This document shows, in pieces, positions 28,938 through 61,874 of a DNA stretch of 64,000 nt. This DNA is from an uncultured Acidobacteriota bacterium (GTDB lineage: Bacteria; Actinomycetota; Acidimicrobiia; Spongiisociales; ZC4RG35). A program made the translations under genes and the position numbers. The notes beneath the pieces were generated by a model. That model was not told where the DNA came from, ran no database searches, and saw only the letters and a program-made list of their open reading frames with translations. Within the stretch, counting starts at the first letter, position 1. Each line of letters opens with the position of its first letter. The stretch is taken from NCBI GenBank assembly GCA_963734115.1, contig CAVTFV010000008.1, positions 211,581 to 275,580 on the forward strand. The letters are read 5' to 3'.

Positions 28938-29189
28938 ATGACCGCCCAATACGAGACCACGGCAGAGGCCCTGAAGTCGATTTGGATCAGCAGTCACGAC
29001 CACGACCCGCTCGACGAGGACTGCAGCCCCACCAAGGCCTGTCGCAACATGAAAGACGTCACATTCGACGGTTATGCCGAGCCGGGCACTGACCTCGGCG
29101 CCGCCTGGCGGGCCAAGCTGGCGCGGGAGGGAAAGCTGTCCACGTCCGGGGGGAGTGTCCGCGACCTGATCCTCGGTCAGGGCGAATAG
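28938..29189 (+). CDS. hypothetical small protein (83 aa)
   Basis: ATG-initiated ORF between xdhC and the second MoxR gene. I do not recognise a domain. Confidence 0.4.
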   Translation: MTAQYETTAEALKSIWISSHDHDPLDEDCSPTKACRNMKDVTFDGYAEPGTDLGAAWRAKLAREGKLSTSGGSVRDLILGQGE

Positions 29190-29230
29190 CCCTGGGCAAC
29201 GACGACCTCTCACCCACGCGGGATCACGCC

Positions 29231-30121
29231 GTGAGCGCCGATGGGGCATCCACACCGCCTGCGAGCGTCGATGAGGTGATCGCGCGTCTCGGCGAGGGTC
29301 GCTATCTGGCCGACCGCGGCCTGGCCACCGCCGTCTACGTCGCGCTGACACTGGGTCGCCCGCTCCTCCTCGAAGGTGAAGTGGGAGTGGGCAAGACAGA
29401 AGTGGCCAAGGTTCTGGCCACGGTCCTGGGGCGCCGCCTCATCCGTCTCCAGTGCTACGAGGGGATAGACACCAACCAGGCCCTCTACGAGTGGGACTAC
29501 GCCCGACAGATGCTCCAGATCAGGGCGCTGTCGGAACGCGAGCTGGCCGAAGACCATGTCGACAAGCTCTTCGGACCCAAATTCCTGCTCGAGCGTCCGC
29601 TGCTGACCGCGGTCAGGGAAGGTGACCGGGCGGTGCTGCTCATCGACGAGATCGATCGGGCCGACGACGAATTCGAGGCCTTCCTGCTCGAGTTGCTGTC
29701 CGACTATCAAATCACCATCCCGGAGATCGGCACTATCTCTGCCTCAGCCCCCCCGCTTGTCATCCTCACATCCAATCGCACCCGCGAGCTACACGACGCG
29801 TTGAAGCGGCGGTGTCTCTATCACTGGGTCGGATATCCGAGCGCCGAACGCGAAGTGGAGATCGTCCTGGTCCGTGCCCCTGGTGCCAGCGAAACCCTGG
29901 CCCGCAAGGTCGTCGCCGCCGTCGGCCATCTCCGCCAGCTCGATCTGGCAAAGCCACCCGGGGTTGCCGAGACGCTCGACTGGGTCGCCACTTTGAACGT
30001 TCTCGGCTCGGAAGACCTCGATGCCGGGACCGTGGAGGACACCCTCGGTGCCGTGGTCAAGGAGCGCGACGACCTCGAAACGGTCCTCGACCACCTCGAG
30101 GAGCTCGTCGCCGATGGCTGA
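29231..30121 (+). CDS. MoxR-family AAA+ ATPase, second copy
   Basis: Walker A GEVGVGKT, Walker B LLIDEIDRAD. About 60% identical to the first copy by eye. Confidence 0.9.
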   Translation: MSADGASTPPASVDEVIARLGEGRYLADRGLATAVYVALTLGRPLLLEGEVGVGKTEVAKVLATVLGRRLIRLQCYEGIDTNQALYEWDYARQMLQIRALSERELAEDHVDKLFGPKFLLERPLLTAVREGDRAVLLIDEIDRADDEFEAFLLELLSDYQITIPEIGTISASAPPLVILTSNRTRELHDALKRRCLYHWVGYPSAEREVEIVLVRAPGASETLARKVVAAVGHLRQLDLAKPPGVAETLDWVATLNVLGSEDLDAGTVEDTLGAVVKERDDLETVLDHLEELVADG

Positions 30122-31265
30122 ACAGTCGATCGCGGTTGATGACCGGACGTCTTTCATAGGGATGCTGGTCGGCTTCGGGGACGAGCTGCGGGACGCTGGA
30201 GTCCCGGTCGGCTCGGGAGATGTCCTCACCTATTGCGCAGCGATGGCGTTGCTCGACCCGGGCGATGTCCTCGATCTCTACTGGGCCGGCCGAACCTCGC
30301 TGGTGACACGGCGGGATCACATCCCGACATACGACCGTGTGTTCCGTACCTATTTCCTCGACCAACCTGCGAAGCCGAAGGGTCCGGCCCTCGCGATTCT
30401 GAAGCAGTCGCTCATCGAGAACCAATCGGTGATCGAGGTACCCGCCGCCGAGCCGGCACGGCCGGGCAAGGAGGAGGAGGCACGACTCGGGCTGATGGCC
30501 TCCGACATCGAGATCTGGCGGAACAAGGCATTCGCCGCCTGCACCGATGAGGAGCTCGCGGCGTTGCGCCGGATCATGAACCAGGTCAAAGTGATCCCAC
30601 CCCGACGACGCTCCCGACGAACGACCCAGTCTCGGTCCGGGAGCAGACCCGACCTTCGTCGCACCGTCCGCACCACGATGCGCACTCATGGCGAGCCCTC
30701 GGAGTTGTTTTGGCGACAGCGACGGCTTAAGACGCGACCGTTGGTCCTCATCCTCGATGTGTCGGGCTCGATGGCCGATTACTCCCGCAACCTCCTCCAG
30801 TTTGCCTATTCGACCCGGCGGGCTGCCACCAAGGTCGAGGTGTTCTGCTTTGGGACGCGGCTCACTCGCATCACGCGGGCCTTGGAGCGACGTCGCCCTG
30901 ACGATGCTCTGGACCAAGCGGCGAAGTCGGTCTTCGACTGGGAGGGCGGTACCCGGATCGGCGAATCGATCGACACCTTCGTCCGCCAGTGGGGTCGCAG
31001 GGGGATGAGCCGGGGAGCGATCGTCGTCATCTGTTCGGATGGGCTCGATCGTGGTGACCCGGCGGTCCTGGCCGCGGCCATGGAGCGGCTGTCCCGGCTA
31101 TGCCACAAGGTGGTGTGGATGAACCCCCACAAGGGCAATGACCCTGAGTTCAAGCTGACGACGCTGGGGATGATGGTTGCGGAGCCATACATCGACTTGC
31201 TTCTCTCCGGGCACGATCTGGCCAGTCTCGAGGAGCTCGCCGAGCGGCTGCCGGAGTTGAGGTGA
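30114..31265 (+). CDS. VWA-domain CoxE-like protein, second copy
   Basis: I placed the start at the internal ATG (MAEQSIAVDD), overlapping the MoxR stop by 8 nt. DVSGSM MIDAS motif. Confidence 0.85.
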   Translation: MAEQSIAVDDRTSFIGMLVGFGDELRDAGVPVGSGDVLTYCAAMALLDPGDVLDLYWAGRTSLVTRRDHIPTYDRVFRTYFLDQPAKPKGPALAILKQSLIENQSVIEVPAAEPARPGKEEEARLGLMASDIEIWRNKAFAACTDEELAALRRIMNQVKVIPPRRRSRRTTQSRSGSRPDLRRTVRTTMRTHGEPSELFWRQRRLKTRPLVLILDVSGSMADYSRNLLQFAYSTRRAATKVEVFCFGTRLTRITRALERRRPDDALDQAAKSVFDWEGGTRIGESIDTFVRQWGRRGMSRGAIVVICSDGLDRGDPAVLAAAMERLSRLCHKVVWMNPHKGNDPEFKLTTLGMMVAEPYIDLLLSGHDLASLEELAERLPELR

Positions 31266-31269
31266 GCCA

Positions 31270-31563
31270 GTGAGATGGAGTGTCTCCCTCCAGACCGAGG
31301 GTGATCGTGTGATCGAGCTAGACGAGGTGGTCGAGCTCGCTGACGCGGTGGCCGCCAGCGATGGGATCGCTTCGGGGATGGGCACCTATGGATACGGGGT
31401 CCAGGTCGTCGTTGAGGCCGATGACAGTGGTCACGCCGTGGAGCTGGCCATGGCGGTGCTCGCCGGGGCCGTGGAGAAGTCGGGTCTCCCGTCCTGGCCG
31501 GTGGTGACCATGGAGACCATCGCCGAGGACGAAGAGATGTTCTACGACATGGTCGAAGAGTGA
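31270..31563 (+). CDS. hypothetical small acidic protein (97 aa)
   Basis: The ORF lies 4 nt after the VWA gene. No recognisable motif. Confidence 0.45.
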   Translation: MRWSVSLQTEGDRVIELDEVVELADAVAASDGIASGMGTYGYGVQVVVEADDSGHAVELAMAVLAGAVEKSGLPSWPVVTMETIAEDEEMFYDMVEE

Positions 31564-31605
31564 TCCGTCTCGGATCGCTCGCCGGGTATCCCTTCGAGGG
31601 GCCGC

Positions 31606-32034
31606 GTGTTCTCGGGGGTTGGACCGCGCCGGAAGCGCCCGCCGTGTTTCGCGGTCATGTACAAGCCGGACCCGTCCCGTAAGCCCGAGGAGTACGGCGG
31701 TCCTCTACGTCGGGCATTCCGACGATCTCTCGACGCGAACGGCTCCCGTTCAACCACCCCAGCGCCGCATGCTGGCTCGAGCCGGGTGGGTGGGAAGAAG
31801 TTCGACCTCTACATCGGCACCTACGAGGCGCCCGGCGCCAACTCTGCGGCACCGCGAGCAGATCGTCCGAGAGCTGGTCGCGATCTACAAGCCGGGCTGC
31901 AACCCCGATCAGTACGACCAGGCCTGGGAGGATCACTGGATCGGGGATTACCAGACCCCGGGCACCACCGGCCCGCTGACGACTCGACGAGAGCCGCCTG
32001 GGGCCGGTGGCTGAAGATACCGACTAAGGCGTGA
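31606..32034 (+). pseudogene. decayed ORF with coding-like segments alternating between two frames and an internal repeat (AVMYKPDPSRKPEEYGG / VAIYKPGCNPDQYDQAW)
   Basis: ORFs 31606..32034 and 31619..32014 overlap in different frames. Each carries plausible segments (a YVGHSDDLSTR-like segment in one frame) and low-complexity junk in the other. Confidence 0.3.
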
Positions 32035-32876
32035 TCACCAGGGTGTCGAGAACGTCCTGCAACTCGGTCACGTCCTCCTCCGGTGACGATCCGGGCGCCC
32101 AGCTCGCCTCGATCATGACCGGGGTGCCCTCCACATCGAGGAACCAGTATTCGACCATATCGGCTGGGTCGTACCAACGCTCGTGGTCGAAAACGGGGCC
32201 CGTCCAGGCCGGTTTGACGTCACCGCCGCACCCGGCAGGCACCTCTCCGACCAGGTGGTACCCGTTGTGGCCGAAGGCATTGACCGGCGCCAACGCCTCC
32301 CGGACCGTCAATCCATTGGTGGCGATCTGGTTGGCCAGATCGGCCGCCGTCGTCCCCGCCGCCACCGGAGCGGTCGGCTCACATACCGATGACCACACCT
32401 CGTCGACCTCGACGACCAAAAGCGACAACAGAGTGCTCGCCGCCACCACCCTCTTTTAGCGCCCCGGATGAAAACACGTCCGTCCACCCGTCACCTTCGA
32501 TGACGAACGTGCCACGAGTCGCCGTCTCCTCGTTGCCGTCGGTGTCGGCGAAGTAGGCGCCGGGGGCGAGGGGCTGAAACTCGTCCGTCAGTTCAGTGGC
32601 ATTCGGGGCCGGCTCGGCCACCGAGGTGTCGTCCCTGGTCAAGAACAGGACGAGCCCTGCGACCAGGATCACCGCCGCCGCCGCCGCGATCCCGACCAGG
32701 GGGCCCCGCCGGCGATTGCGGTCCGCCTGGACCTCAGTCGGTCTGTCATCGATCTGCATTTCCGTTCTCCTCTCGAGAAGGGTCGTGAGGACGGGCACAT
32801 CCACAGGCTCGAGGGCGTTCAGGTCCGGCAGAGGATTTGCCTTGCGGACCATGCGATCGATCTGATCGTGTGTCAT
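32024..32876 (-). pseudogene. anti-sigma-like membrane protein with extracytoplasmic domain, copy 1 (one frameshift near 32440)
   Basis: MTHDQIDRMVRKANPLPD...TM helix (GPLVGIAAAAAVILVAGLVLFL) in the frame of ORF 32379..33437. The C-terminal domain continues in the frame of ORF 32024..32449. Total length is 3n+1. Confidence 0.6.
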
Positions 32877-33437
32877 GTCGCTCCTTCCTCGGCGACCGGA
32901 GGGGAAGGGATCGGCTTGATGAGGGGCTGGAGAGCCCGAGCGAGTCTCTGGTAGGAACGGTGGATTCTCTGGTCGACCGCGGACCTGGTCATGCCCATGA
33001 TCTCGGCGATGTCGTCCCTGGGCAGATCCTCCCAGGCGTAGAGCATCACGATCTCGCGGTCTCGTCGGGCTCAGGTTCCTAACCGCCGCTGCGACGTCGG
33101 CGTCGTCAGAGCTCTGGACGACGAGGAACGCCGGGTCGACCGGGGGAGCGACACCCAGGTTGCGCAACTTCTCGTCGAGACGTGATCTGCGACGAAAAGA
33201 TCGGGTGTGATTGGAGACCACCTTGCCCGCGATGCCGTAGATGTAGAGGAGGGTCTTGGGCGGCGGTGGAATCTCGTCGATCCGGCGCCATACCACCAGG
33301 AATATCTCGGCACAGACGTCGTCGGCATCGTGTGCTGCGACCCTTCGTATGCAGTAGGCGCGCACCTTCAGCGAGTGCTCGGCCCAAATCGCTTCGAAGC
33401 GAGCCCTCCGCTCCATGTCCACCGTCGTCGTCATCAA
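32873..33437 (-). pseudogene. ECF (sigma-70 family) sigma factor, copy 1 (frameshift between region 2 and region 4 near 33065)
   Basis: Region 2 (FLVVWRRIDEIP...LLYIYGIAG) is in one frame. Region 4 (DREIVMLYAWEDLPRDDIAEIMGMTRSAVDQRIHRSYQRL) is in another. The stop overlaps the anti-sigma ATG (ATGA). Confidence 0.65.
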
Positions 33438-33522
33438 TCAGTTCCTGTCCGGATACGACACCCCGTTGACAGGATTCTGTTCGAATCTCCACCCCTATGC
33501 CTGTAGGCGGGGATACAAATGA

Positions 33523-33552
33523 GGAACGGGTCGGCGTGTGCCGACCCGTTCC
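33523..33552 (-). terminator. perfect 13-bp GC-rich hairpin (GGAACGGGTCGGC-loop-GCCGACCCGTTCC) downstream of copy 2; candidate intrinsic terminator
   Basis: Sits in the roughly 150-bp spacer between copy 1 and copy 2, about 40 nt after the copy-2 stop. On the minus strand it is followed by UCAUUUGUAU. Confidence 0.4.
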
Positions 33553-33590
33553 GTGGATAAATCGATGGTGGCTGCCCGACTAGGGGGTGA

Positions 33591-34427
33591 TCACCAGAGT
33601 GTCGAGCACCGCTTGGAGCTCGGCCACATCCTCTTCCGGGGAGCTGGCGAACGAGGCCGCTTCGACCATGACCGGGGTCCCCTCCACATCGAGGAACCAG
33701 TAATCCACGACCTGACCGGTGCCTGGTAGAAGCGCCCGAATGTGGGTCCTTCCCAGACCGGGACTCTGGTCGCCCAGCGCACCCGGTAGGGATCTCGACC
33801 ACCAGGTGGTAGCCCGTCATGGCCAAAGGCAGTGACCGGTGCCAACGCCTCCCGGATTGTGAATCCAGCGGCGGCGAACTGGTTGGCCAGGGTCCTCCGC
33901 AGTCGATCCCGGCAGCCAGGGGTTCACCACCGCCACACGCCGGCGACCACACCTCGTCGACCTGGACGACCAGGAGCGAGACAAAGTCCTCGCCAAATGC
34001 CTTTCTCGCCCCCGCTGGCATGCGATGACCACCCGCTGTCTTCGATCACGAAAGTGCCTCCGAGCGACGACGCCTCGTCTCCGTCGGTGTCGACGAAGTA
34101 GGCGCCGGGCGCGAGCCCGAATCCATCTCGTCTGGGCTGATCCGGGTCGCATTCGGGGCCGGCTCGGCCACCGGGCGTGTTATCCTTGGTCAGTAAGAAG
34201 ACGAGCCCTGCGATCAGGATCACAGCCGCCGCCGCGATCCCGACCAGGGGGCCACGCCGGCGATTGCGGTCCGCCTGGACCTCAGTCCCGGGTCTGTCAT
34301 CGATTTGCATTTCCGTCCTCCTCTCCAGAGGGGTCGTGAGGACAGGCACATCGACGATCTCGAGCGTGCTCGGGTCCGGGATCGGGTTCACCCGGCGGAC
34401 CATCTCTCGGATCTGGTCGTGCGTCAT
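33591..34427 (-). pseudogene. anti-sigma-like membrane protein, copy 2 (heavily decayed C-terminal domain)
   Basis: MTHDQIREMVRRVNPIPD...TM in the frame of ORF 33924..34988. The C-terminal domain is fragmented across ORFs 33434..34021 and 33591..33845. Confidence 0.55.
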
Positions 34428-34988
34428 GTTCACTCCTTCCTCGGCGATCGGAGGGGAATTCAGTGAACTGATCTCCAGGACGGGCACCAGGGCCCGGGAG
34501 AGCTTTTGATAGGCGCGGTGGATCCGCTGATCGACGGCGGCCCTCGTCATGCCCATCACATCGGCGATCTCTGCCCGGGACAGGCCCTCCCAGACGTCGA
34601 GCATCACGATCTCCCGGTCGACGGGCTTGAGCCGTCGGACCGCGTCCGTCACGACCTTGTCGTCGGCGCGCTGCACGACGACGAGCATCGGGTCGGCGGC
34701 AGGCGCCATCCCGAGGTTGGTGAGCTTGGTGTGGAGACGGCCCCTTCGATAGAAGGCTCGCGATCTGATTCGACAGCGATTTTGCGGGCGATCCCGTAGA
34801 GACAAGGAAGGGTCTTGGGGGCCGGCGGTATCTCGTCGATGCGCCGCCACACGACGAGAAACGTCTCGGCGCAGGCGTCCTCCGCATCGGCCGACGAGGC
34901 GCGCCGCAGGCAATAGGCCAGCACCTGGTGCCGGTGTGCGCGCCAGATCGCCTCGAATCGAGACCTGCTGGTCGGTCTGCGAAGTCAT
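34424..34988 (-). pseudogene. ECF sigma factor, copy 2 (frameshifted; region 4 reads through into the anti-sigma frame)
   Basis: Region 2 is in ORF 34649..34924 (FLVVWRRIDEIPPAPKTL). Region 4 is in ORF 33924..34988 (DREIVMLDVWEGLSRAEIADVMGMTRAAVDQRIHRAY). There is no stop before MTHDQ. Confidence 0.6.
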
Positions 34989-35118
34989 TGCCCCTTAGTG
35001 TCCACCCGTGGTGGATCGCTGACGAGATTCTTGCTCAGATCTCGTGTCATGGGTCGCGGTCACCCGGACACAAACGGGTTGCCGGAACACCGGTCAGGTG
35101 ATCCGGAGGGGAAAGAGA

Positions 35119-35143
35119 TGGGCCGGGTCGGCCCCGGCCCATC
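35119..35143 (-). terminator. perfect 10-bp hairpin (ATGGGCCGGG-TCGGC-CCCGGCCCAT) about 35 nt after the stop of the last small membrane protein; candidate terminator of the cox operon
   Basis: GC-rich stem followed on the minus strand by CUCUUUCCCCUCC. Confidence 0.35.
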
Positions 35144-35176
35144 TCGACTAAGAGCACGGAGAGGATGCGACTCGAC

Positions 35177-35588
35177 CTACGAAGGCTCTGACGTATCGGC
35201 CAGGGGGGCGTGGGCCCTGCTCCCTGGGCCGTCCGGCATGTAGCCGATGGCGTCATGCAGACGTGAGCGGCGACGACCGGATGCGGGTACCGCCGGGCCT
35301 CGCTCCGGCACCGTCTCGGGGTCGTAGGTGGCCCCGACCACGATCTTCTCGGCCATCCCATATAGGAGGGGGAGTGCGGCTGCGACGACGCCTCCCGTGC
35401 GGTTCACGTGCTCGAGATTGCCTTCGATCGAAGCGGCGTTGCCGCCGATCTTCTGCACCAGGTCGTTGCACTCCTCGAGATTGGTGGCGATCCGGGTGAG
35501 CTGCCCCCCGACGATCCATAGATAGATCGCCAGCCCGGCGATGAGCAGGACGATGTCGACGACGGTGAAGATGCACCAGGTTGCTCAT
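35177..35588 (-). CDS. small single-pass membrane protein (DUF948-like architecture), 5th of a tandem array; 1-nt frameshift just after the start
   Basis: ATG at 35588 with AAGGTG 6 nt upstream, overlapping the previous stop (ATGA). Removing one base near 35570 gives MSNLVIFTVVDIVLLIAGLAIYLWIVGGQLTRIATNLEECNDLVQKIGGNAASIEGNLEHVNR, continuous with ORF 35177..35458. Confidence 0.5.
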
Positions 35589-35878
35589 GAGCGCACCTTC
35601 CCCAGCACCCGGCCCAGGAAGAGATGGTGCTCGAGACCCTCTGCGAGGACCAGGTCGACTCCGGCAGCAGTGGTGTTCAGCAGCTCGGCATCAGCGGTGT
35701 TGGCCTCGGCCTGGGTCAGGGTCGCTTTGATGTTCTTGACTCTCTTGTCGATTCTGTGGACGAGGAGCACAAGGATCGTGAGCAAGAGCGCTACGGCGAC
35801 CACGACGGCGAGGCCGGCCCAGTTGGCGATCCGCCACAGCGTCTCCTGATTCTCGGTCAGGGCAAAGATCACGGTCAA
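35585..35878 (-). CDS. small single-pass membrane protein (DUF948-like), 4th of array
   Basis: 97 aa with TM helix WAGLAVVVAVALLLTILVLLV followed by a polar helical region. Confidence 0.55.
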   Translation of the reverse strand: MTVIFALTENQETLWRIANWAGLAVVVAVALLLTILVLLVHRIDKRVKNIKATLTQAEANTADAELLNTTAAGVDLVLAEGLEHHLFLGRVLGKVRS

Positions 35879-36374: not shown

Positions 36375-36629
36375 CTAACCCAGCAACTTCGCCACGGAGC
36401 CGGCGTAGCGGACTGCGCCGGTGGAAACGTCTTCGATCGCCTTGTCGGTGACCGCCAGCAGCTCAGGCACCCTGTCGACCTCGCCGATCAGGGCGACGCC
36501 ACCGCCGAGGATCTCATCAGAGGCACCCCTGATCCGCTCGAGAGCTGCCAGCACCCGATTGAGAAGTGCGACCAACACCGGCACCACCACCAGCAGCAGC
36601 ACCGCATTTCCGATCCACCACCAAGTCAT
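36375..36629 (-). CDS. small single-pass membrane protein (DUF948-like), 1st of array
   Basis: I placed the start at the internal ATG. MTWWWIGNAVLLLVVVPVLVALL TM helix followed by a polar region. It begins 10 nt after coxG. Confidence 0.55.
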   Translation of the reverse strand: MTWWWIGNAVLLLVVVPVLVALLNRVLAALERIRGASDEILGGGVALIGEVDRVPELLAVTDKAIEDVSTGAVRYAGSVAKLLG

Positions 36630-36639
36630 CAGCGCCTCC

Positions 36640-37221
36640 TCAGATCCGGTCGGGTTGGTAGGGGAGAAAGAACCGGCGCCCGACTCTCTTGAGCGCCATC
36701 CATGCCGCCGCGATGGCGATACCGAAGCCACTGGCGGATTTCGTCTGGATCTGGTCGGGTGAGACACCGCGGTCGTAGGCATCGATCCGCGTCTGCATGT
36801 TCGTGGCGAAGTCCCGCATCATCACCGCGCTCACGTCGCTGATCATGCCCCGCCCGTACTGCGCAGCGGCGCCGGACAACTCCAGGTCCTGCTCCACCTC
36901 CACCCTCGTTCCGTTGGCGGTGGGGACGAGGCGGGCAGTCAGCCCGAGGTTCGCCTGACCCCGGCCCTTGTCGTCGGCGCCCGAGGCGTCGACGACGATG
37001 GTCCTGTTGGCGTGATCGCGCTCCTTTACCGCGGCTTGTCCGGCGAATTGCATCTGGACTGGACCGAGCCGGATGCCGACATTCCCTGCGTATTGATCGG
37101 GGCCGATCTCGTCGGTGAGCGAGGCGCCAGGGAGACAGGCGGCGACCTGGGGGATGTCCTGACAGAACTCCCACACCTTGTCTACGTCGACCGGCACCTC
37201 GAAGTCATGTTTGATCAGCAT
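36640..37221 (-). CDS. coxG: CO dehydrogenase subunit G (SRPBCC family CoxG)
   Basis: 193 aa beginning MLIKHDFEVPVDVDKVWEF, with a C-terminal hydrophobic anchor. Confidence 0.85.
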   Translation of the reverse strand: MLIKHDFEVPVDVDKVWEFCQDIPQVAACLPGASLTDEIGPDQYAGNVGIRLGPVQMQFAGQAAVKERDHANRTIVVDASGADDKGRGQANLGLTARLVPTANGTRVEVEQDLELSGAAAQYGRGMISDVSAVMMRDFATNMQTRIDAYDRGVSPDQIQTKSASGFGIAIAAAWMALKRVGRRFFLPYQPDRI

Positions 37222-37222
37222 C

Positions 37223-38173
37223 TCATCCCCTGACTGTCATGTACGCGGAGGGGTCTTTCTCGAAGGCCGCCCGGCATCCCGGGCAGCAGAAGTAATAGGT
37301 CTGACCCTCGTATTCGAACGGGCGACTGCTCTCATCGGCAGGCACGGTCATGCCGCAAACGAGGTCTACGGCGGTGCCTGCGGCTGCGTGCTCATGGCCA
37401 TGACCGGAATGGTGGTGCTCGATGGGCATCGCGTTCGATTCCGCCAGGGGCGCGGGGTCGAAGGCACCCTTGGCCCGAAGCTCCACCAACTCGGCAAGAA
37501 CGGAGACTGCGATTTCGGGATGTGACGTGTGGCCGAGGTCGAGGCCTACGGGGACCCTCACTTGATCCAAGAGGTCACGGGGGACACCCCGTTCGGCGAG
37601 GTAGCCGAGGACCGCCTCGCCACGCTTGGACGAGGCTACGAGCCCCACGAAGGCCGGGCGCGCGTTCACTGCCTGCTCGACCGCCTCCTCGTCACCGTGA
37701 CCCTGAGTGGCGACCACCACGACCGACCAGCTGCCGACATGAGCGGTCTTGAAGTCGGGTACATCGACCAAGTCAGCGCGCCAGCCGACCCCGGCCGCAA
37801 GCTCCACCAGGGTGGCGGCCATTGGGGATCTGCCCACGACCACCAGGTGGGGGCTGGGAAGTACTGGCTCGACATAGAGCTGCAGCGCGCCCTCGGACTG
37901 GCACGACATCTGGACGAACGTCATGCCTTCGGCAACCTCGCCGAACTGGTCGGGGTCGCCGAGCAAGATCAGACGCGGGACCCGTTCTTCGATGGCGCGC
38001 TGCGCCTCCCGAACGACGACCGGCTCGGCACAGGCCCCGCCGATCCAGCCGTGCATCTGGCCGTCGGCAGTGATGATGGCCCGCGACCCTTGCTGCCCTG
38101 AGGAGGGCGCCTGGCGCCAGACCACGGTGGCCAGGGCGAATTCGACGCCCTGGCGGGCGAGATCGCTGGCCAT
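37223..38173 (-). CDS. XdhC/CoxF-family maturation factor fused to a C-terminal YHS (TRASH-like) metal-binding domain
   Basis: XdhC core (VPVGLDLGHTSHPEIAVSVLAE), a His-rich linker (HHHSGHGHEH), then CGMTV...YEGQTYYFCCPGCRAAFEKDP. The start has GGAGG 9 nt upstream. This gene was artificially joined to coxL in the 1183-aa ORF 37223..40774. Confidence 0.8.
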   Translation of the reverse strand: MASDLARQGVEFALATVVWRQAPSSGQQGSRAIITADGQMHGWIGGACAEPVVVREAQRAIEERVPRLILLGDPDQFGEVAEGMTFVQMSCQSEGALQLYVEPVLPSPHLVVVGRSPMAATLVELAAGVGWRADLVDVPDFKTAHVGSWSVVVVATQGHGDEEAVEQAVNARPAFVGLVASSKRGEAVLGYLAERGVPRDLLDQVRVPVGLDLGHTSHPEIAVSVLAELVELRAKGAFDPAPLAESNAMPIEHHHSGHGHEHAAAGTAVDLVCGMTVPADESSRPFEYEGQTYYFCCPGCRAAFEKDPSAYMTVRG

Positions 38174-38208
38174 CTCGATCATCCTCCACCCATCGGCAGG
38201 CTGGGCAC

Positions 38209-40593
<2,385 letters not shown>

Positions 40594-40597
<4 letters not shown>

Positions 40598-41118
40598 CCT
40601 TGATCCTCCAGCTTCTTTGCCGCCCACATGACCGCCTTGACGATGTTCTGGTAGCCGGTGCAGCGGCAGAGATTGCCGCTCAATGCCCATCGGATCTCGT
40701 CCTCGGTCGGGTTCGGGTTCTCCTCGAGCAGGGCCTTGGAGGCCATCATCATCCCGGGAGTGCAGAACCCGCACTGGAGCCCGTGCTCCTCCTTGAACCC
40801 TTCCTGTATGGCGTGCAGCTCACTGGGACCTGCCAGGCCCTCAACGGTCATCACGTCATGCCCGTCGGCTTGGACGGCGAACATCGTGCAGCTCTTCACC
40901 GGCGTGCCGTCGAAGAGCACGGTGCATGCCCCGCAGTTGGAGGTGTCGCAGCCGGTGTGGGTGCCGGTGAGATGGAATCCCTGACGGAGGAGATGGGCGA
41001 GGACGAGACGGGGCTCGACCACGGCTGTTCGGGTCTCGCCGTTGACCGTGACTGTGATCTGCCTCGTCGGCGTCTCCGCGGCCGCCCCCGGGCTGACCTC
41101 TTGGAACAGGCTGGTCAT
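40594..41118 (-). CDS. coxS: CO dehydrogenase small [2Fe-2S] subunit CoxS
   Basis: 174 aa with both cysteine clusters ([11 protein letters not shown] and [10 protein letters not shown]...CRCTGY). Confidence 0.95.
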
Positions 41119-41119
41119 G

Positions 41120-41995
41120 TCAGGCCGCCTCCTCTTCCGATCGAATCAACCCGGTCAGGATCCTGCTGGTGAAGACGCTGACCAGCTGCTTCTTGTAGGA
41201 GGCGCTGCCTCGATGATCGGTCCGGGGTTGGGCTGCCTGCGCCGCCAGCGAGGCGGCCTCACCGATCACATCGGCTGTGAGCGAACTGCCAACCAGCACC
41301 TGGGCGGCATCATCGGCTGAGATGGTCGAAGGACCCACTCCGGTCAGGCCAATGCCCGCCCTGGTGACCTCACGGCCGTTTCGGTCGACGGAAACGGCGA
41401 CCCCGACCGTGGCGAAATCGCCCACGCGGCGCTCCAACTTCAGATAGCCGCCAGCCGGCTCGCCCTGGGGGGCGGGAGCGATCGCCTCCACCACCACCTC
41501 GTCGTAGGCGAGGTTTGTCTGGAACGGGCCGCGGACGAGCTCCTTGACCGGGATTGTCCGCCGGCCACCTTGACCCTGTGCCACAACCGAGGCATCCAAC
41601 GAGACCATCACCGATGCCCAGTCTCCCTGTGGGTCGGCGTGACACAGGGAACCGACCAGAGTGCCGCGATTTCGCACGATCGGGTCGGCGACGAGTGGCG
41701 CCGCCGCAGCCATGGTGGGCTGATGGCCGGCCAGCAACGAAGAGCGCTCCAGGTCGGCGTGACGGCACAGCGCCCCGACGTGGATCGATCCGTCGGCATC
41801 GATCCGGTGATAGTCCAAACCGGCAATCTCGTTGATGTCGACCAGCATCTCCGGGGAAGCGAACCGGAGCTTGATCATCGGGACCAGGCTCTGGCCTCCG
41901 GCCAGCACCTTGGCATCGCCACCCCCGTCGGCCAGGAGCGCGGAAGCTTCCTCGATCGACCTGGGAGCCTCGTAGCGAAATCGAGAGGGGTAGAT
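41120..41995 (-). CDS. coxM: CO dehydrogenase medium FAD-binding subunit CoxM; probable ATC initiation codon
   Basis: FAD-binding motifs ([28 protein letters not shown]). The N-terminus (I)[20 protein letters not shown] aligns to M-I-P-G-S-F-D-Y... of characterised CoxM, so the ATC at 41995..41993 sits at the initiator position. AAGGAGG lies 5 nt upstream. There is no in-frame ATG/GTG/TTG for 75 codons upstream. Confidence 0.85.
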
Positions 41996-42015
41996 GTCTG
42001 CCTCCTTGGTTTGCT

Positions 42016-45067: not shown

Positions 45068-46403
45068 ATGTTCGACAGCCTGACCCAACGATTCGAGGAC
45101 GTCTTTGCCTCGCTGCGAGGAAAAGGGCGTCTCTCCGAGAAGGACATCGACGCTGCTTTGCGCGAGGTCCGTCTCGCCCTGCTCGAAGCGGATGTCAACG
45201 TCAAGGTGGTCAAGGACTTCCTGGCTCGGGTCAAGGAACGGGCCATAGGGGAGGATGTCTCCAAGTCGCTCTCACCGGGCCAACAGGTGATCAAGATCGT
45301 CCACGAGGAGTTGGTGAGAACCCTCGGCTCGGAGGCGGTGCCGCTGAAGAAGGCCGCCCCGCCACTGACCATCCTCATGGTCGGGCTCCAAGGCTCGGGT
45401 AAGACCACTACCGCCGGCAAACTCGCCCGTCTGCTCAAGAGCCAGGGCAAGAAGCCATTGCTCGTGGCGGCAGACCTGCAGCGCCCCGCCGCGATCGACC
45501 AGCTCGAAACTCTTGGTGGCCGTATCGACGTCCCGGTCTTCGTCGATCGCAAGGGCAAACCCGCGCGCCTGGTCAAGGCCGCATTGAAGGAAGCGACGCG
45601 GACAGGGCGTGACGTGGTGATCGTCGATACCGCGGGCCGTCTTCAGATCGACCAACAGCTGATGCGTGAATTGGACGATGTCCGGAAGTCCGCCGACCCC
45701 GACGAGGTGCTTCTCGTCGTCGATGCCATGACCGGCCAGGATGCAGTCAATGTCGCTTCCGGCTTCCAGGAGCAGGTTGGCCTCACCGGCGTCGTCCTCT
45801 CCAAGCTCGACGGTGACGCACGAGGGGGGGCCGCGATCTCGGTGCGGGAAGTGACCGGGGCTCCGGTGAAATTCGCCGGCATGGGTGAGGGTCTCGACGA
45901 CCTCGAGCCGTTCTATCCCGACCGGATGGCCTCCCGGATCCTGGGCATGGGCGACGTGATGAGCCTGATAGAGAAGGCCGAGGCGACTTTCGACGAGGCG
46001 GAGGCGGAGAAGACCGCCAAGAAGCTGCAGAAGGGTGAATTCACCCTGGAGGACTTCCTCGCTCAGTTCCAGGCGATGAAGCAGATGGGGCCTCTCAAGG
46101 ACATCCTTGCTATGATCCCGGGTTCCGGTTCGCTCATGCGCGAGGTGGATGTCGACGACCGTGACCTGCGTCGCGTCGAGGCAATCATTCAGTCGATGAC
46201 TCCAGAAGAGCGCCGGAACCCAAAGCTCATCGGCGGCAGCCGAAAGCGCCGTATCGCTGTCCGGTTCGGGCACCAGGCCTCAGGACGTGAATCGGGTGCT
46301 CAAGCAGTTCGTCGACGCGCAGAAGATGATGAAGATGCTGGCCGGCGGCAAAGGGGCCCCCTCGTTGCAGGGTCTCTTCCCGGCACAGCGAACCAAGAGG
46401 TGA
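45068..46403 (+). CDS. ffh: signal recognition particle protein Ffh; single-base frameshift near 46258 in the M domain
   Basis: NG domain is intact ([15 protein letters not shown]). The true C-terminus, [50 protein letters not shown], is in the +1 frame. Removing one base from GCTGTCCGG restores it. This is an essential gene. Confidence 0.9.
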
Positions 46404-46407
46404 ATCG

Positions 46408-46890
46408 ATGGCCGTGAAGATGAGATTGATGCGGATGGGGAAGAAGAAGACCCCTTCGTATCGCGTCGTGGTGGTGGACGGCCGTGCGCCGCGTGATGGC
46501 CGCTACATCGAGCAGATCGGGCGGTACGACCCGCAGCAGGACCCATCGCTCGTCGAGATCGACAATGAGAAGGCCGCTTCGTGGCTGTCGAAGGGGGCAC
46601 AACCCACCGAGGCCGTCGAGAAGCTCCTCAACATCTCTGGGGCGATGAACACGATGAAGGTCCGCACCGGCCAGATCCACACCGTCGGCTCCACGCGCCC
46701 CGCGGCCGAGGAGGCCGCCAGTGGAGTCGCCGAGCCCGCTGCGGCTTCTGCCGCGGTGGATGAGCCGGTGGTCGAGACTTCCGCCTCTGAGGAGGCGGCC
46801 GACACCGAGACCCTGGCTGCTCAGGAGCCGGTAGTCGAAGAGCCGGTTGCCGAGGAGATAGCAGCCGACACGTCCAACGAGGAGGAGTGA
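46408..46890 (+). CDS. rpsP: 30S ribosomal protein S16 with acidic Ala/Glu-rich C-terminal extension
   Basis: [42 protein letters not shown]. Confidence 0.9.
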
Positions 46891-47700: not shown

Positions 47701-48864
47701 ATGCCCGAAGCAGTGATCGTCGCCACCACCCGCTCTCCCATAGGCCGTGCCTACAAGGGGTCACTCATCGACGTCCGCGCCGATGACCTGGCGGGCTTCG
47801 CCATCGACGCCGTGATGTCGAAGGTTCCGGAGGTGGATCGCGCCTCGGTAGCGGATGTGATGATTGGTTGCGCCCTCACCCACCACGAGCAGGGGTTCAA
47901 CGTGGCCCGACCGGCTTCCCTCCTCGGCGGGATGCCAGAGAGTGTGCCGGCCACCACCGTAAATCGCTTCTGCGCTTCGTCTTTGCAGACGATCCGCATG
48001 GCCTTTCACGCCATCGAGCTGGGCGAAGGGGACACGTACGTAGCGGGAGGCGTCGACTCGGTGACCCGGACCTATGGCAAGGGATTCGACAGCGACGACC
48101 TCAATCCGCGATTCACCGACGAGACCCGCGACGACTTCATCGACCAGGTATACATCCCAATGGGAAACACTGCCGAGAACGTCGCGGAGCGATACGGGAT
48201 CACCCGGGAGCGCATGGACGAGTTCGCCAAGCGATCTCAGGACCGGGCGGTCGAGGCACAGAAGAACGGCTTCTTCGACCGGGAGATCACACCGATCGAG
48301 GTGCCCGACGGTCGTACCATCGCCGTCGACGACGGGCCCCGTCCCAACACCACCCTCGAGAAGCTGGCCGAGCTCCCGCCGGTCTTCAAACCCGACGGCA
48401 CTGTGACCGCAGGCAATTCGTGCCCGCTCAATGATGGTTCCGCCGCCGTCCTGGTCATGTCCTCCGACAGGGCGTCGGAACTGGGGCTGCAACCAACGGC
48501 CCGGATCATCGCCTCCTCTGTCGTCGGCCTCGAGCCGGAGTACATGGGAATGGGCCCGGTGGGTGCGGTGAGAGCCGTGCTTGCCCAGGCCGACATGGAG
48601 CTCGGGGACATCGACATCATCGAGATCAACGAGGCGTTTGCCGCGCAGGTCCTGGCCAGCGCCGATGAGCTTGGCATCGACATGGACAAGCTGAACCCTC
48701 ATGGTGGGGCGATCGCCCTCGGCCATCCCTTCGGCATGACCGGAGCCCGGATAATGGGAACCCTGATCAACGATCTCCGGACCCTCGACAAGACAATCGG
48801 CCTCGAGACGATGTGTGTCGGCGGAGGTCAGGGGATGGCGATGATCGTGGAGCGTCTGAGCTAG
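47701..48864 (+). CDS. acetyl-CoA C-acyltransferase (thiolase)
   Basis: 387 aa with active-site NRFCASSLQ, a GNSCPLNDGSAA region, and C-terminal GHPFGMTGAR...CVGGGQG. Confidence 0.9.
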   Translation: MPEAVIVATTRSPIGRAYKGSLIDVRADDLAGFAIDAVMSKVPEVDRASVADVMIGCALTHHEQGFNVARPASLLGGMPESVPATTVNRFCASSLQTIRMAFHAIELGEGDTYVAGGVDSVTRTYGKGFDSDDLNPRFTDETRDDFIDQVYIPMGNTAENVAERYGITRERMDEFAKRSQDRAVEAQKNGFFDREITPIEVPDGRTIAVDDGPRPNTTLEKLAELPPVFKPDGTVTAGNSCPLNDGSAAVLVMSSDRASELGLQPTARIIASSVVGLEPEYMGMGPVGAVRAVLAQADMELGDIDIIEINEAFAAQVLASADELGIDMDKLNPHGGAIALGHPFGMTGARIMGTLINDLRTLDKTIGLETMCVGGGQGMAMIVERLS

Positions 48865-50345
48865 CCGGCCTCAGCGCTACCGGTCATCTCGCCGCGGGCC
48901 CACGCCGTCGCCTCACGCACCCTGTCGTGGCCACTGTTCACCGCCACCATCAGGAAGTCACCCGAGGCGAACACCGTGTCCGCCGTTGGGATCGTTGCCT
49001 TGTGATCCCGGATCATCGTCGTGATCAGCATTCCATCCGGGGGCGGGTTGCTTCCAAGACTGGTGCCGACCAGCGCTAGGTCATCGGTCACCTCGATCTC
49101 GATGAGGTCTACGTCCACGTCTTCCAGCTCCACGGCATCGGCGATGGATTGCCACGCTGGCCGATCGACCACGAGGTCGAGACGCTTGGCGAGGGGCCCA
49201 ATCGTGGTGCCCTGGAGAAGAGCTGACACGAGCACCACGAAGAACACGATGTTGAAGATGGTGTCACCGAGGGCCACTCCCGCAGTGGCCGGGAACGTGG
49301 CGAGGACGATAGGTAGTGCTCCCCGCAATCCTGCCCAGGAGAGAAAGGTCATCTCCTTCCAGGACAATCGGAAGGGGAGCATGGCTAGGACCACCGCCAG
49401 GGGCCGGCCCACCAACAACAAGATGGCGGCCACCGCCAACGCCTCGACTGCGACTCCGGGCAATTCGGCCGGGAACACGAGCAGCCCCAGCAGGAGAAAC
49501 AACGCGATGTCGGCCCCGTTGGCCAGGCTGGCGTGGAAGCTCCGCACGACCCTGCGGTGACGCGGGGCCAGGGCACCGATCATGAGCCCGCAGATGTAGA
49601 CCGCCAGGAATCCCGAGCTCCCGATGTAGGCAGCTACCGCGAAGGTGAGTCCGGCCATGGCCAGGGCCAACAGCGGATAGAGACCGGAAGATCTCAATCG
49701 AAGCCGCAGCAGTCTGGAGCCGATCCAGCCTCCAAGCAGGCCAACCGCAATGCCTCCAATTAGTTGCCGGGCACCAAACAACAGCCAGTCCTCGACGCCG
49801 GGATTCGACCTGGTGACCTCGATGAGACCGATGGTGAGGAGGATGGCGAAGGGGTCGTTCACACCCGACTCGACCTCGAGGATTCCGGCCAGGCGCTTTG
49901 GGATCGGAGTGCGACGGATGACGTCGAACACGACCGCGGCATCGGTGGAGGCGACTACCGCCCCGATGATGAGGGCCGTCTCCCATCCGGTATCGAATAG
50001 AAGCTGCACGCCGGCGGCAACCACACCGGCGCTGACCAGGACGCCGACGTTGGCGAGGACGAATCCCGGTACGCCCGACTCTCGAAGGACGGACGGCTTG
50101 GTGGTGAGGCCGCCCTCGAAGAGGATGATCATGAGGGCGACGACGCTGATGTCCCTGACCATCGCCATGTCGCTGACTTCGACCAGCCCGAGGACATCGC
50201 TTCCGAAGAGGATGCCGATCCCGAGCGAGAGGAGGGCGGCGGGCACCCTGAGCCGATCGGAAGCTCCGACGATGAGGACCCCGATGACCATGAGCCCGGC
50301 TGCGACCAGCAGAATGCCGTCGACCGGGAGGTGTTCGACAGTCAC
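48861..50345 (-). CDS. monovalent cation/H+ antiporter (CPA1 family, NhaP-type) with C-terminal TrkA-C-like domain
   Basis: 494 aa. 12-13 TM helices followed by a soluble C-terminal domain. Confidence 0.85.
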   Translation of the reverse strand: MTVEHLPVDGILLVAAGLMVIGVLIVGASDRLRVPAALLSLGIGILFGSDVLGLVEVSDMAMVRDISVVALMIILFEGGLTTKPSVLRESGVPGFVLANVGVLVSAGVVAAGVQLLFDTGWETALIIGAVVASTDAAVVFDVIRRTPIPKRLAGILEVESGVNDPFAILLTIGLIEVTRSNPGVEDWLLFGARQLIGGIAVGLLGGWIGSRLLRLRLRSSGLYPLLALAMAGLTFAVAAYIGSSGFLAVYICGLMIGALAPRHRRVVRSFHASLANGADIALFLLLGLLVFPAELPGVAVEALAVAAILLLVGRPLAVVLAMLPFRLSWKEMTFLSWAGLRGALPIVLATFPATAGVALGDTIFNIVFFVVLVSALLQGTTIGPLAKRLDLVVDRPAWQSIADAVELEDVDVDLIEIEVTDDLALVGTSLGSNPPPDGMLITTMIRDHKATIPTADTVFASGDFLMVAVNSGHDRVREATAWARGEMTGSAEAG

Positions 50346-50452
50346 GCTATGAGGCTGTGGTCGATGGACATGTCAACTCTCCGGATGAGCCGGGGGAATC
50401 GCCCGGGAACCGAGGATATCGGCGATCTCTGCCCCGCCCTAGCCTTCCCGAC

Positions 50453-51615: not shown

Positions 51616-52170
51616 TTGCCCGGATTGCTGTTGACGGCACTGGCCATCGCGGTCGTCATCAAGACATTCTTGATCCAGCCGTTCTGGATCCCGTCGGAGT
51701 CGATGCTCCCCACTATCGAGGTCAACGACCGGGTAATGGTCAACAAGCTGGCATATCAGTGGGGTGAGCCACAGCGTGGTGACATCGTTGTATTCCGCGA
51801 TCCCCGCGAGGAGGAGATCGAAGAGTCCATCCCCGAAGCGGTTATTCGCTCTGTCCTCGAGGCGGTCGGCATTCGCACTCGGGGTCATGAGGACCTGATC
51901 AAACGGGTCGTCGGCCTGCCGGGAGAGACCATCGAAGTCACGAACAACCGGGTCGTTGTCGACGGGACTCCGCTCGATGAGCCCTACTTGCCCGACGTCT
52001 TCATGCCAGACGAGCCGGCTGTCACCGTCGGGGCCGACGAGGTGTTCCTCATGGGAGACAACCGCGATGCGTCCTTCGACAGCAGGCGCTTCGGCCCGAT
52101 ACCGCTCGAAGACCTCATCGGGAGGGCCTTCGTGACCATTTGGCCCGTCTCACACATCGGCGGCCTTTAG
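51616..52170 (+). CDS. lepB: signal peptidase I (LepB); N-terminus may extend upstream to about 51538
   Basis: Catalytic IPSESMLPT (Ser) and KRVVGLPGE (Lys) boxes. The annotated TTG start omits the in-frame RRRSFLAELPG positive n-region. That region has no canonical start upstream except the ATC overlapping the rplS stop (TGATC). Confidence 0.85.
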   Translation: MPGLLLTALAIAVVIKTFLIQPFWIPSESMLPTIEVNDRVMVNKLAYQWGEPQRGDIVVFRDPREEEIEESIPEAVIRSVLEAVGIRTRGHEDLIKRVVGLPGETIEVTNNRVVVDGTPLDEPYLPDVFMPDEPAVTVGADEVFLMGDNRDASFDSRRFGPIPLEDLIGRAFVTIWPVSHIGGL

Positions 52171-52279
52171 AGGCGCGTCTCTATTCACCGACAGACGACT
52201 GAAAACGTCACCGGATTGTTAGCCGTTAAGTAACGAGCCGTGCATATGATCTTTTGTCGGCCTGTGTGAAGAGGAGAGC

Positions 52280-59413: not shown

Positions 59414-59525
59414 GGCGAATCGGCACCAGGGTGCCGGTAAGACGGTAAACCTGACCTAACAGTTAGTCGCGTACCTGCGGCACAGACCCCTTCCAACCAG
59501 AGTTTCCGCCTCGTACGTTCGGGCC

Positions 59526-60999
59526 ATGTATGCAGCCGCCACTTCGGTGGCGCTAGTCGGAGGGGAGGCGCGACCGGTCCGCGTCGAGGCCCACGTCGGG
59601 CGTCAGATTGAGGCATTCAAACTGTCGGGACTTCCCGACACCGCGGTTCGGGAGGCCAAGGATCGGGTGCGAGCGGCGGTCGCTTCGGCCGGGATCCGCT
59701 TCCCCAACAGGACGGTCACCGTGAATCTTGCACCCGCCGACCTTCCCAAGGGCGGGACCGACTACGACCTCCCGATCGCATTGGGGATCCTCGCCGCCAG
59801 CAAGGAGATCCCGCCCCTACGTGAAGCCGTTGTGGTGGGCGAGCTCGCCCTCGACGGTGCGGTCAGACCGGGCTCCAACGCATTTGGCGCAGGCGTGCTG
59901 AGTGCCCGGCAGAAGGTGCCCTGTCTCGTGGCCTCATCGGTGGTCGGTGAGTCGGCATCCATCCCCGGGGCCAGGGCCTATGGCGTCGACAGCCTTGCGG
60001 CCGCGGTGGACCTACTCCGTGAGGGTCTGGGAAACGTCGAGCCGGCGGAACCCGGCGCTCCCATCGTCGGGGAGAAGGCGCCCGACCTGGCCGACATCAG
60101 GGGCCAGCCAATGGCGAGACGGGCGCTCGAGGTGGCGGCGGCAGGCGGTCATCACCTCCTGATGCATGGTCCGCCCGGGTCGGGCAAGACGATGTTGGCC
60201 CGGCGGATCATCGGCATCCTCCCTCCTCTCGAGATCGAGCATGCCGTGGAGACGGCGATGCTCTGGGCGGCGGCGGGCCGGCGCCGGGGGCTGGTGGTGA
60301 CGCCGCCGTTTCGCTCTCCTCATCACACGGCCTCCAAGGCGGCCCTGGTCGGGGGCGGCAGTGGCAATCCGGTCCCGGGAGAAGTTTCCTTGGCACATCG
60401 AGGTGTGCTCTTCTTGGACGAGCTGGCCGAGTTCCCCCGCAGTCATCTCGACACGCTCCGCCAGCCGTTGGAAGAAGGTGTCGTGTCGGTCGCCCGCCGG
60501 GGATCCTCTCTCGATTTCCCGGCTTCGTTTCAACTGCTGGCTGCAACCAACCCGTGCCCCTGCGGTTTCTACGGAGACGGGCGACGACCGTGCGACTGTC
60601 GTCCGGCCATCCTCGGCCGCTATCGGTCCCGCATCTCCGGACCTCTGATCGACCGGTTCGACCTCATCGTCCGCGTAGGCCGCGTCGATGCAGCGGAATA
60701 CTCGGGGCCACGGGGCGAGGCGAGCGCTTCGGTCGCCGCCCGCGTCGAGCAGGCCCGTGAAGCGCAAATGCGACGAGGGCAGATCAATCGCTACCTGGAC
60801 CCTCAGTGACGGTCGCGAGTCGGAAGCTGCCGGCCGATTGGTTGCCATGGCCGTCGGCAACGGGGTCCTGACGGCCCGCGGTGGAGACCGTGTCCGGCGA
60901 GTGGCGCGCACCATTGCCGACCTGGACGGGGTGGATCAGGTCGAAGAGCAACATATGGCCGAGGCGATCGGCCTCCGCGGCGAGTGGCGGGATGAATGA
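59526..60999 (+). CDS. yifB: YifB/ComM-family Mg-chelatase-like AAA+ ATPase; frameshift near 60790
   Basis: Lon-like N-domain, Walker A GPPGSGKTMLA, sensor motifs. The C-terminal LTARGGDRVRRVARTIADLDGVDQV...AEAIGLR lies in the frame of ORF 60688..60999. Total length is 3n+1. Confidence 0.85.
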
Positions 61000-61822
61000 C
61001 GTTCGAGTGATGGCCCCGGACGGGCCTGACTATCCCATGGGCCTGCTCGATCTGGAGGACCCTCCTCGGTTGTACGCAATCGGGGATACCACCACGGCGC
61101 CGGCAGTGGCAGTAGTCGGCACACGCAGGTGCACCAGATATGGCCTCAATCTCGCCGATGCCTTCGGCCACGCCCTGTCCCGCGCCGGGTGGACCACCGT
61201 GAGCGGTCTGGCCCGCGGCATCGACGCCGCCGCTCATCGAGGGACGCTGCAAGGCCCCGGCGACGCCGTGGCGGTGCTGGGGTCCGGTGTCGACGTCGTC
61301 TACCCGGTGGAGAACACCGATCTCTATCGGGCGATCTTGCGGAGCCGCGGGGCGATCTTGTCCGAGTACCCACCAGGGACCAGGCCCGACCGATGGCGGT
61401 TTCCGGCGCGGAACCGGATCATCGCCGGCATCTCCTCGGCTGTCGTCGTGGTCGAGGCCGGGGAGAAGGGGGGAGCGCTGATCACGGCGCGGCTGGCGGC
61501 CGAGCTGGGAAGGCCGGTGTTCGTGGTCCCGGGCGACATCGATCGGCCCGCCTCCGTTGGCTGCAATCGGCTGATCCGGGATGGTGCCCATCCGGTCCTG
61601 GGAGTCGACGACTTTCTGGCCGAGCTCGAGTTGATCCTCGGCAAACCGCCCAACCAGGTGCCGCCTTCAGAGGGAGTCATCCCGGCGACTGGTCTCGCCA
61701 TTGACGATCTTCCCTCGTTCTGGGACTGCACCCCAGCCGAGGCCCTGGCCCGTCTCGCTCGCATGGAGATCGCGGGCGAGGCGCGTCGCGTGGGGGATCT
61801 GGTGCTCCCGGGCTCGGGTTGA
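60992..61822 (+). CDS. dprA: DNA-processing protein DprA (Smf)
   Basis: AVAVVGTRRCTRYG...GIDAAAHRG...VVEAGEKGGALITARLAAELGRPVFVVPG Rossmann core. The ATG overlaps the yifB stop. Confidence 0.8.
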   Translation: MNDVRVMAPDGPDYPMGLLDLEDPPRLYAIGDTTTAPAVAVVGTRRCTRYGLNLADAFGHALSRAGWTTVSGLARGIDAAAHRGTLQGPGDAVAVLGSGVDVVYPVENTDLYRAILRSRGAILSEYPPGTRPDRWRFPARNRIIAGISSAVVVVEAGEKGGALITARLAAELGRPVFVVPGDIDRPASVGCNRLIRDGAHPVLGVDDFLAELELILGKPPNQVPPSEGVIPATGLAIDDLPSFWDCTPAEALARLARMEIAGEARRVGDLVLPGSG

Positions 61823-61874
61823 CGGGTCCGGGGACCGCCCCGCCAATAGCATCTCCAATGTGAGGATTCCCCCC

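Follow-up and report, generated by a model that had tools for sequence, protein, structure and literature searches.

One-base insertions break ffh, rpsB and at least 11 other genes on an Acidimicrobiia metagenome contig, very probably through long-read assembly or consensus error

Gene content of the window and the relatives compared

The window, by which we mean the whole stretch of 64,000 nucleotides analyzed here, has a G+C content of 65%, and its proteins match those of uncultured Acidimicrobiia. It contains ffh, the 5′ part of rpsB and two separate gene sets of the CO-dehydrogenase/xanthine-dehydrogenase type, at 24850–31300 and 36600–42000. One of these sets comprises two divergent copies of accessory genes (xdhC, a coxD-like AAA gene and a coxE-like VWA gene) and nothing else. 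The other is a coxM-coxS-coxL-xdhC-coxG operon, with five small tandem ORFs beside it (75–118 aa in the relative L001). An Rfam search and a tRNA scan of the whole window returned nothing at curated thresholds.

We compared the window with DNA of relatives at 83–94% nucleotide identity, which jointly cover all of it except ~8.4–12 kb. L001 is a 2.7-Mb ENA contig and L002–L005 are JGI metagenome contigs. L082–L086 are GTDB MAGs, four of them labelled MFD (Microflora Danica). L087 is an ENA contig labelled 4x, L088 is a JGI contig in which all genes are intact, and L091 is a MEGAHIT contig. L089, L090 and L093 are ENA assemblies with names of the form contig_N, L093 being contig_23260 of the MAG MFD06229.bin.2.168. 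The records of L083–L086 are titled “uncultured Acidobacteriota bacterium,” and homologous proteins are named Acidimicrobiia in other sources; the Acidobacteriota label looks wrong. The PEP carboxylase and FtsY of the window, both intact, are 100% identical to proteins (P0121 and P0241) on a 456,119-bp NCBI/ENA contig, a size typical of a long-read assembly. Frame detection by GC3 and longest ORFs was dropped as unreliable, because wrong frames stay open at 65% G+C, and alignment to the relatives and tblastn were used instead.

The relatives also differ from the window by longer segments. Between upp and the PEP carboxylase gene (22072–22087), L087 and L088 carry a segment of 47–49 nt with a perfect inverted repeat (GGCGCGGAGATCTCGACC...GGTCGAGATCTCCGCGCC), which is missing from the window, L089 and L090. 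Compared with L001 and L003, the window has a 32-nt insertion (TTAGAGGCGCGTCTCTATTCACCGACAGACGA) at 52167–52198, between a signal-peptidase gene and a DUF2469 gene. A segment of ~1.2 kb (48926–50155) within a 503-aa ORF on the minus strand (48864..50372) is present in L085 and L086; L001 has nothing equivalent between its thiolase gene and trmD.

Frame breaks in ffh and rpsB

The features at the two essential genes are as follows.

45068–46403, + strand: ffh (SRP54-type GTPase), read in two frames, 45068–46257 and then 46259–46403
46258: extra T in ffh, which splits an Ala codon GCG (GC[T]G TCC in the window); there is no homopolymer there
63545–63667, + strand: structured 5′ leader upstream of rpsB
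63613–63614: extra base in the non-coding leader of rpsB (GTG[CA]AAA); in the conserved leader this position is part of a hairpin loop
63668–64000, + strand: rpsB (ribosomal protein S2), 5′ part, which exits the window; frame switch at 63915–63917
63915–63917: extra base in rpsB; the window has GCCGACC where relatives encode Ala-Thr as GCG ACC or GCC ACC

As it stands, the ffh ORF (45068..46417) encodes 449 aa, canonical through GGSRKRRIA and with an aberrant C-terminal end after it. The canonical end of the Ffh M domain follows one frame over (46259–46403), and its stop is 5 bases ahead of rpsP. The sequence-only reading, made without database searches, had held that the M-domain tail is lost to a frame change at about 46258. 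DNA alignment bears this out and places an extra T at 46258: the window reads ATCGC[T]GTCC, versus ATCGC-GTCC in L001 and L082–L086. This base is missing from 6–7 ffh loci of relatives (L001, L082, L083, L084, L085 and L086 are those listed), and a GTDB-wide scan for the ffh motif with an optional extra base found five genomes, of which none carries it. After removal of the one base, Ffh is 444 aa long and shares 97% identity over 100% of its length with P0001 and others. The same length, 444 aa, is that of nearly all of the best 120 Ffh matches (more than 100 relatives) in the protein collection, and Ffh of the relatives reads RRIASGSGT at the junction. With the Ffh of L001 as tblastn query, the raw sequence is matched at residues 1–397 and 399–444 in two frames, and the corrected sequence at 1–444 in one.

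The rpsB gene starts at TTG 63668 or ATG 63680. Its first frame reads to AQAAVAEHA, and S2 continues in a different frame from ~63918. A frame switch at a C-run at about 63918 had been proposed from the sequence. The switch is real, but the run is not its site: the length difference is at 63915–63917, and the C-run, ACCCG, also occurs in L002, L004 and L005, three of the four relatives with sequence there. Where the window has GCCGACC, L002 has GCG-ACC and L003–L005 have GCC-ACC, and thus the base is absent from all four JGI loci. With S2 ORFs from L002 and L003 as tblastn queries, rpsB is matched in two frames before correction and in one frame after it.

The leader upstream of rpsB is near-invariant in eight relatives (overall identity down to 73%). 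RNAalifold predicts nested stems in it, with compensatory changes at four pairs. It aligns over the full length of the Rfam rpsB motif (RF01815), at a sub-threshold 21.2 bits versus a gathering score of 40 (E = 0.023). It probably represents a divergent form, in Acidimicrobiia, of the autoregulatory S2 leader.

Other broken genes and their repair

At least 13 genes of the window are broken: ffh, rpsB and at least 11 others. The further extra bases and the genes that carry them are listed here.

568–1408, + strand: fpg; extra G at 820 (TCC[G]ATC), on the basis of the MEGAHIT contig L091
20362: extra base in non-coding (intergenic) sequence, from the alignment of relatives
24856–25624, - strand: xdhC/coxI-type accessory gene, Rossmann domain part; extra A at 25123 (CAG[A]CGC)
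31560–32011, + strand: hypothetical gene of 149 aa; five extra bases, at ~31647, 31696, 31736, 31776 and 31845
32027–32876, - strand: anti-sigma-like gene 2; frame break near 32445, in a divergent stretch
32876–33434, - strand: ECF sigma factor 2; extra base at ~33062
33583–34430, - strand: anti-sigma-like gene 1; extra bases at ~33819, 33890, 33906 and 34026, and a further break at 33710–33775
34427–34990, - strand: ECF sigma factor 1; extra bases at 34430 (stop/start junction with the anti-sigma gene), 34763 and 34780
35240–35590, - strand: small membrane protein, last in the tandem set; extra T at 35572, on the basis of L001 and L089
38212–40597, - strand: coxL-type molybdopterin large subunit; extra T at 38634 (GCC[T]GCA)
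59487–60996, + strand: comM/yifB (Mg-chelatase-like); extra base at 60800–60802 (GGACC[C]TC)
61680–62745, + strand: xerC-type tyrosine recombinase; extra base at 62463/4 (GGGG[AC]GGCC), where relatives carry C or A

When the 21 coding-region bases were removed, relatives' proteins gave full-length tblastn matches in a single frame for 10 genes: fpg, xdhC, the 149-aa hypothetical gene, an ECF sigma factor gene, the small membrane protein gene, coxL, ffh, comM/yifB, xerC and rpsB. These 10 restored genes have neither in-frame stops nor larger lesions. In the raw fpg ORF, the N-terminal 77 positions of the Pfam family Fapy_DNA_glyco are not matched, and correction extends the tblastn match from 57–280 to 1–280. 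The match to xdhC changes from two pieces (1–171 and 133–256) to 1–256, that to ECF sigma factor 2 from 1–131 and 122–186 to 1–186, and that to coxL from 1–655 and 646–795 to 1–795, at 98.5% identity. For comM/yifB the pieces 6–443 and 444–508 become 6–508, and for xerC 1–268 and 245–355 become 1–355; the small membrane protein is matched at 6–116 before and 1–116 after correction. The 149-aa gene has no match at 70% identity or more in its raw form and is matched over 1–149, at 86% identity, without its five extra bases. At 31695/6 the G is the base to remove, since removal of the C gives a stop codon. For ECF sigma factor 1, a sigma fragment of L087 matches 1–142 of the corrected sequence in a single frame at 95% identity.

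The two anti-sigma-like genes lie in more divergent sequence. Gene 1 is recovered in part after correction (1–216 by tblastn), the remainder being too divergent, and gene 2 is split even then against a 282-aa protein of L088 (1–145 and 141–282). The breaks near ~32445 and at 33710–33775 fall in alignments too divergent to place indels and are outside the count of events given below. Besides ffh and rpsB, each site is supported by 1–5 loci of relatives; the A at 25123 in xdhC, for example, is missing from L087, L088, L089, L090 and L093. The events at 820 and 38634 are each placed by a single relative, the coxL site at 38634 being covered by L001 only, and those at ~33062 and ~34026 by divergent alignments. 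The ~33062 event is less certain, as L089 has the same length as the window there.

It had been concluded from the sequence that the breaks are assembly errors and that the pseudogene calls of the window, among them coxL, fpg, yifB, xdhC, xerC and the small membrane protein, should be treated as provisional. The alignments and searches agree with this: the extra bases are private to the window, and the calls are provisional because removal of one base restores each of these genes. A “Zn-ribbon gene” cited in the same connection may be one of the anti-sigma factors.

Number, sign and sequence context of the insertions

Across all stretches that could be aligned to relatives, we counted 23 single-base length differences private to the window, all of them insertions (23:0; two-sided sign test, 2e-7). 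No single-base deletion is private to the window, and apparent deletions were either private to one relative or located between genes.

A cause in systematic indels at G-runs and C-runs had been proposed for these breaks, and miscounting of such runs is what 454, Ion Torrent and older Nanopore chemistry would produce. Homopolymer indels are a textbook long-read consensus error (PMC9262707), and a few short runs of the window are indeed lengthened, CC to CCC at 60802, TTT to TTTT at 34780, and others at 33890 and 31647. However, the inserted base is unlike both of its neighbors in 16–17 of the 23 events (56% would be expected for random insertion), and these are therefore not run-length errors. 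The run that results from the insertion has a length of 1 in these 16–17 events, 2 in 2–3, 3 in three and 4 in one. The window has 108 runs of at least five bases and none of the 23 events is inside any of them, there are no deletions, and most relatives match the window in the length of the runs that adjoin the rpsB and xerC sites. In xerC, where a G-run or C-run had been blamed, GGGG is equally long in L002, L003 and L005 (L004 has AGGG) and the extra base is an A or C after the run. In xdhC, also ascribed to a homopolymer, it is the A of CAG[A]CGC. Thus the homopolymer part of the earlier proposal is not supported, and we consider miscounted run lengths a highly unlikely source of the insertions.

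The inserted bases comprise nine T, seven C, five A and two G, so that 14 of the 23 are A or T in a GC-rich genome. No shared motif, such as a methylation motif, is evident around them. They are strongly clustered: 14 of the 23 fall in the 4 kb at 31.6–35.6 kb (binomial P ~7e-12), at a density of ~1 per 300 bp versus ~1 per 5–8 kb outside this hot spot.

The hot spot (31600–35600) holds two ECF sigma/anti-sigma pairs, the 149-aa hypothetical gene and the start of the tandem small membrane proteins. No other part of the window is so unlike the relatives (~87% identity), and L089 has a single sigma/anti-sigma pair there.

Private indels in sister assemblies

In the multi-way alignment, isolated private 1-nt indels occur in several of the relatives. 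The insertion and deletion counts are 4 and 0 for L090, 1 and 0 for L089, 3 and 1 for L093, and 1 and 0 for L085, i.e., nine private insertions and one deletion over these four assemblies. The JGI contigs L088 and L002–L005 have none of either kind. Alignment with the MEGAHIT contig L091 shows a single gap within a gene, namely the insertion at 820 in the window itself. L087, the contig labelled 4x, has no private 1-nt errors.

L089 and L090 are 99.1% identical, yet they differ by seven one-base indels in 19 kb. Broken genes are seen in the Nanopore-style MAG contigs as well: xdhC of L089 is split into 155 and 63 aa, and two SIMPL genes of L093 are fused into one of 438 aa.

For the long-read MAGs of the MFD project, Nanopore reads were processed with Flye and a single Medaka round, and the soils sampled had marked strain-level diversity (PMC12313526). 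Nanopore-type assemblies of low or modest coverage are known to suffer from frameshifts caused by consensus indels (PMC9262707).

Real mutation or recoding

If the insertions were real mutations, in a decaying or mutator lineage or in defective genomes, the genes would be true pseudogenes. The bases are present in the sequence, and a cluster of 14 out of 23 lies in accessory genes (ECF sigma/anti-sigma, hypothetical and small membrane protein genes), whose loss could be tolerated. The other observations argue against this reading. The breaks strike ffh and rpsB, whose products are essential proteins in model bacteria. All 23 events are +1 insertions; nonsense codons, deletions, larger indels and IS elements are absent. 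Decay of bacterial genes, in contrast, normally leaves mixed lesions with a bias to deletion. For most breaks, conservation is about the same downstream as upstream, with identities to relatives of 97.8% downstream versus 97.2% upstream in ffh, 100% versus 94.4% in rpsB and 88.3% versus 89.9% in xerC; in coxL (94.7% versus 98.2%) and comM (89.2% versus 96.8%) the downstream part is 3–8 points lower. A history in which one small gene gained five single bases within 200 bp would be implausible, and private insertions recur in the sister long-read assemblies and are absent from the short-read ones. The window thus has neither the mixed lesions, nor the general downstream divergence, nor the sparing of essential genes that mark gene decay, and we regard real mutation as very improbable.

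Another possibility is that the cell makes whole Ffh and S2 from the sequence as it stands, by programmed +1 ribosomal frameshifting or by transcriptional slippage. Skipping one nucleotide would indeed make both proteins whole. However, the shift sites occur in no relative and are thus not conserved, and they show neither a slippery run (GCT G TCC in ffh, GCC G ACC in rpsB) nor the prfB arrangement of a stop or rare codon preceded by a Shine-Dalgarno-like element. Slippage needs long homopolymers, which are absent at these two sites, and a density of more than 20 such sites per 64 kb would have no precedent. Since no relative has the sites and recoding signals are lacking, we exclude programmed frameshifting and give recoding of ffh and rpsB in vivo a negligible chance. 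The broader proposition that the bases are real, with either +1 recoding at many non-canonical sites in this lineage or a real population of defective genomes, is exceedingly unlikely.

Merged alleles as a source of the extra bases

A SNP between co-assembled strains might be written into the consensus as both alleles side by side, which would appear as a 1-nt insertion. This mechanism, a form of assembly artifact, would account for the occurrence of insertions only, for their non-homopolymer sites and for their clustering in the most variable region, where identity to relatives is lowest (~87%), and the soil MAGs of the MFD project come from samples with strain-level diversity (PMC12313526). 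At six sites the two bases of the window are the alleles of two relatives: GC[CG]ACC in rpsB, GGGG[AC]GG in xerC, and those at 63613, 31647, 34430 and 34763. The extra base of ffh is at the third position of an Ala codon, and three private insertions of L090 have the same pattern. However, six sites out of 20 is not significantly more than the 3.2 expected by chance (P = 0.08), and neither are the 12 of 20 sites at which the base could be a synonymous alternative allele (9.7 expected, P = 0.20). The L090 cases were spotted post hoc, and at 35572, 33906 and 60802 there is no flanking site that would make the inserted base a synonymous allele. Side-by-side alleles are therefore a suggestive but not demonstrated source of the insertions, possible though rather unlikely as the mechanism behind them.

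Consensus error as the preferred explanation

In combination, these results make it very probable that the breaks of ffh and rpsB and the other insertions of the window are long-read metagenome assembly or consensus errors and not biology. The indels are private to the window, removal of one base repairs the gene, essential genes are struck, and relaxed selection is not evident. The same signature is found in sister assemblies and is absent from those made with accurate reads; that the window came from the same pipeline as the former is our reading of this similarity. From the sequence comparison, we infer that the extra bases originated in sequencing or consensus building and not in the DNA. 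Judging from the relatives, the platform was most likely Nanopore-only, with processing of the Flye plus Medaka kind.

Under the proposed mechanism, residual single-base insertion errors would have been left in the consensus of this uncultured Acidimicrobiia assembly. Each would add one nucleotide, usually unlike both neighbors, and would shift the frame of whichever gene it struck, essential genes included, while the real genes in the cell would be intact. The hot spot would probably reflect poor read support or merged reads of several strains.

Two observations count against an artifact of this kind. The signature (non-homopolymer, insertion-only and AT-rich, with 14 of 23 bases A or T) differs from the published, homopolymer-centered Nanopore errors. 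Moreover, low coverage alone does not predict errors, as the contig labelled 4x (L087) is clean.

Read as consensus errors, the insertions are an assembly artifact and hold no new biology, but they matter for the use of such genomes. Gene losses deduced from the window would be wrong, those of genes for CO-dehydrogenase maturation, DNA repair, competence and recombination included, because at least 13 genes in 64 kb look pseudogenized only through one-base insertions. Polishing or filtering that is aware of homopolymers would miss errors that are insertion-only, clustered and outside homopolymers. The same signature in related public Nanopore soil MAGs is a concern for users of such catalogues.

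Comparison with known systems

Pseudogene-rich reductive genomes of the Mycobacterium leprae type resemble the window in that many broken genes lie close together. In contrast to those genomes, the window has broken essential genes, +1 insertions only and little decay downstream of the breaks. The +1 frameshifting of prfB (RF2) is similar in that skipping one nucleotide would restore the protein, but the window sites are not conserved and lack both a Shine-Dalgarno-like stimulator and a stop or hungry codon, and the relatives do without the base.

Homopolymer errors of 454, Ion Torrent and Nanopore R9 data also give single-base frameshifts. Their defining feature, an indel within a run of identical bases, is missing from 16–17 of the 23 window events, and long runs contain none.

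A close known system is the consensus frameshifting of long-read (Nanopore) genomes and MAGs, as revealed by IDEEL-type tests for truncated proteins and addressed by tools for frameshift correction (PMC9262707; proovframe preprint 10.1101/2021.08.23.457338). As there, one-base indels in a consensus that is otherwise good split genes, essential genes are equally struck and a one-base repair restores them, and among contigs of the lineage this type of error occurs in the sister Nanopore MAGs but not in short-read assemblies. Published accounts of Nanopore data describe homopolymer indels of both signs, whereas the events in the window are insertions only, mostly outside homopolymers, AT-rich and clustered.
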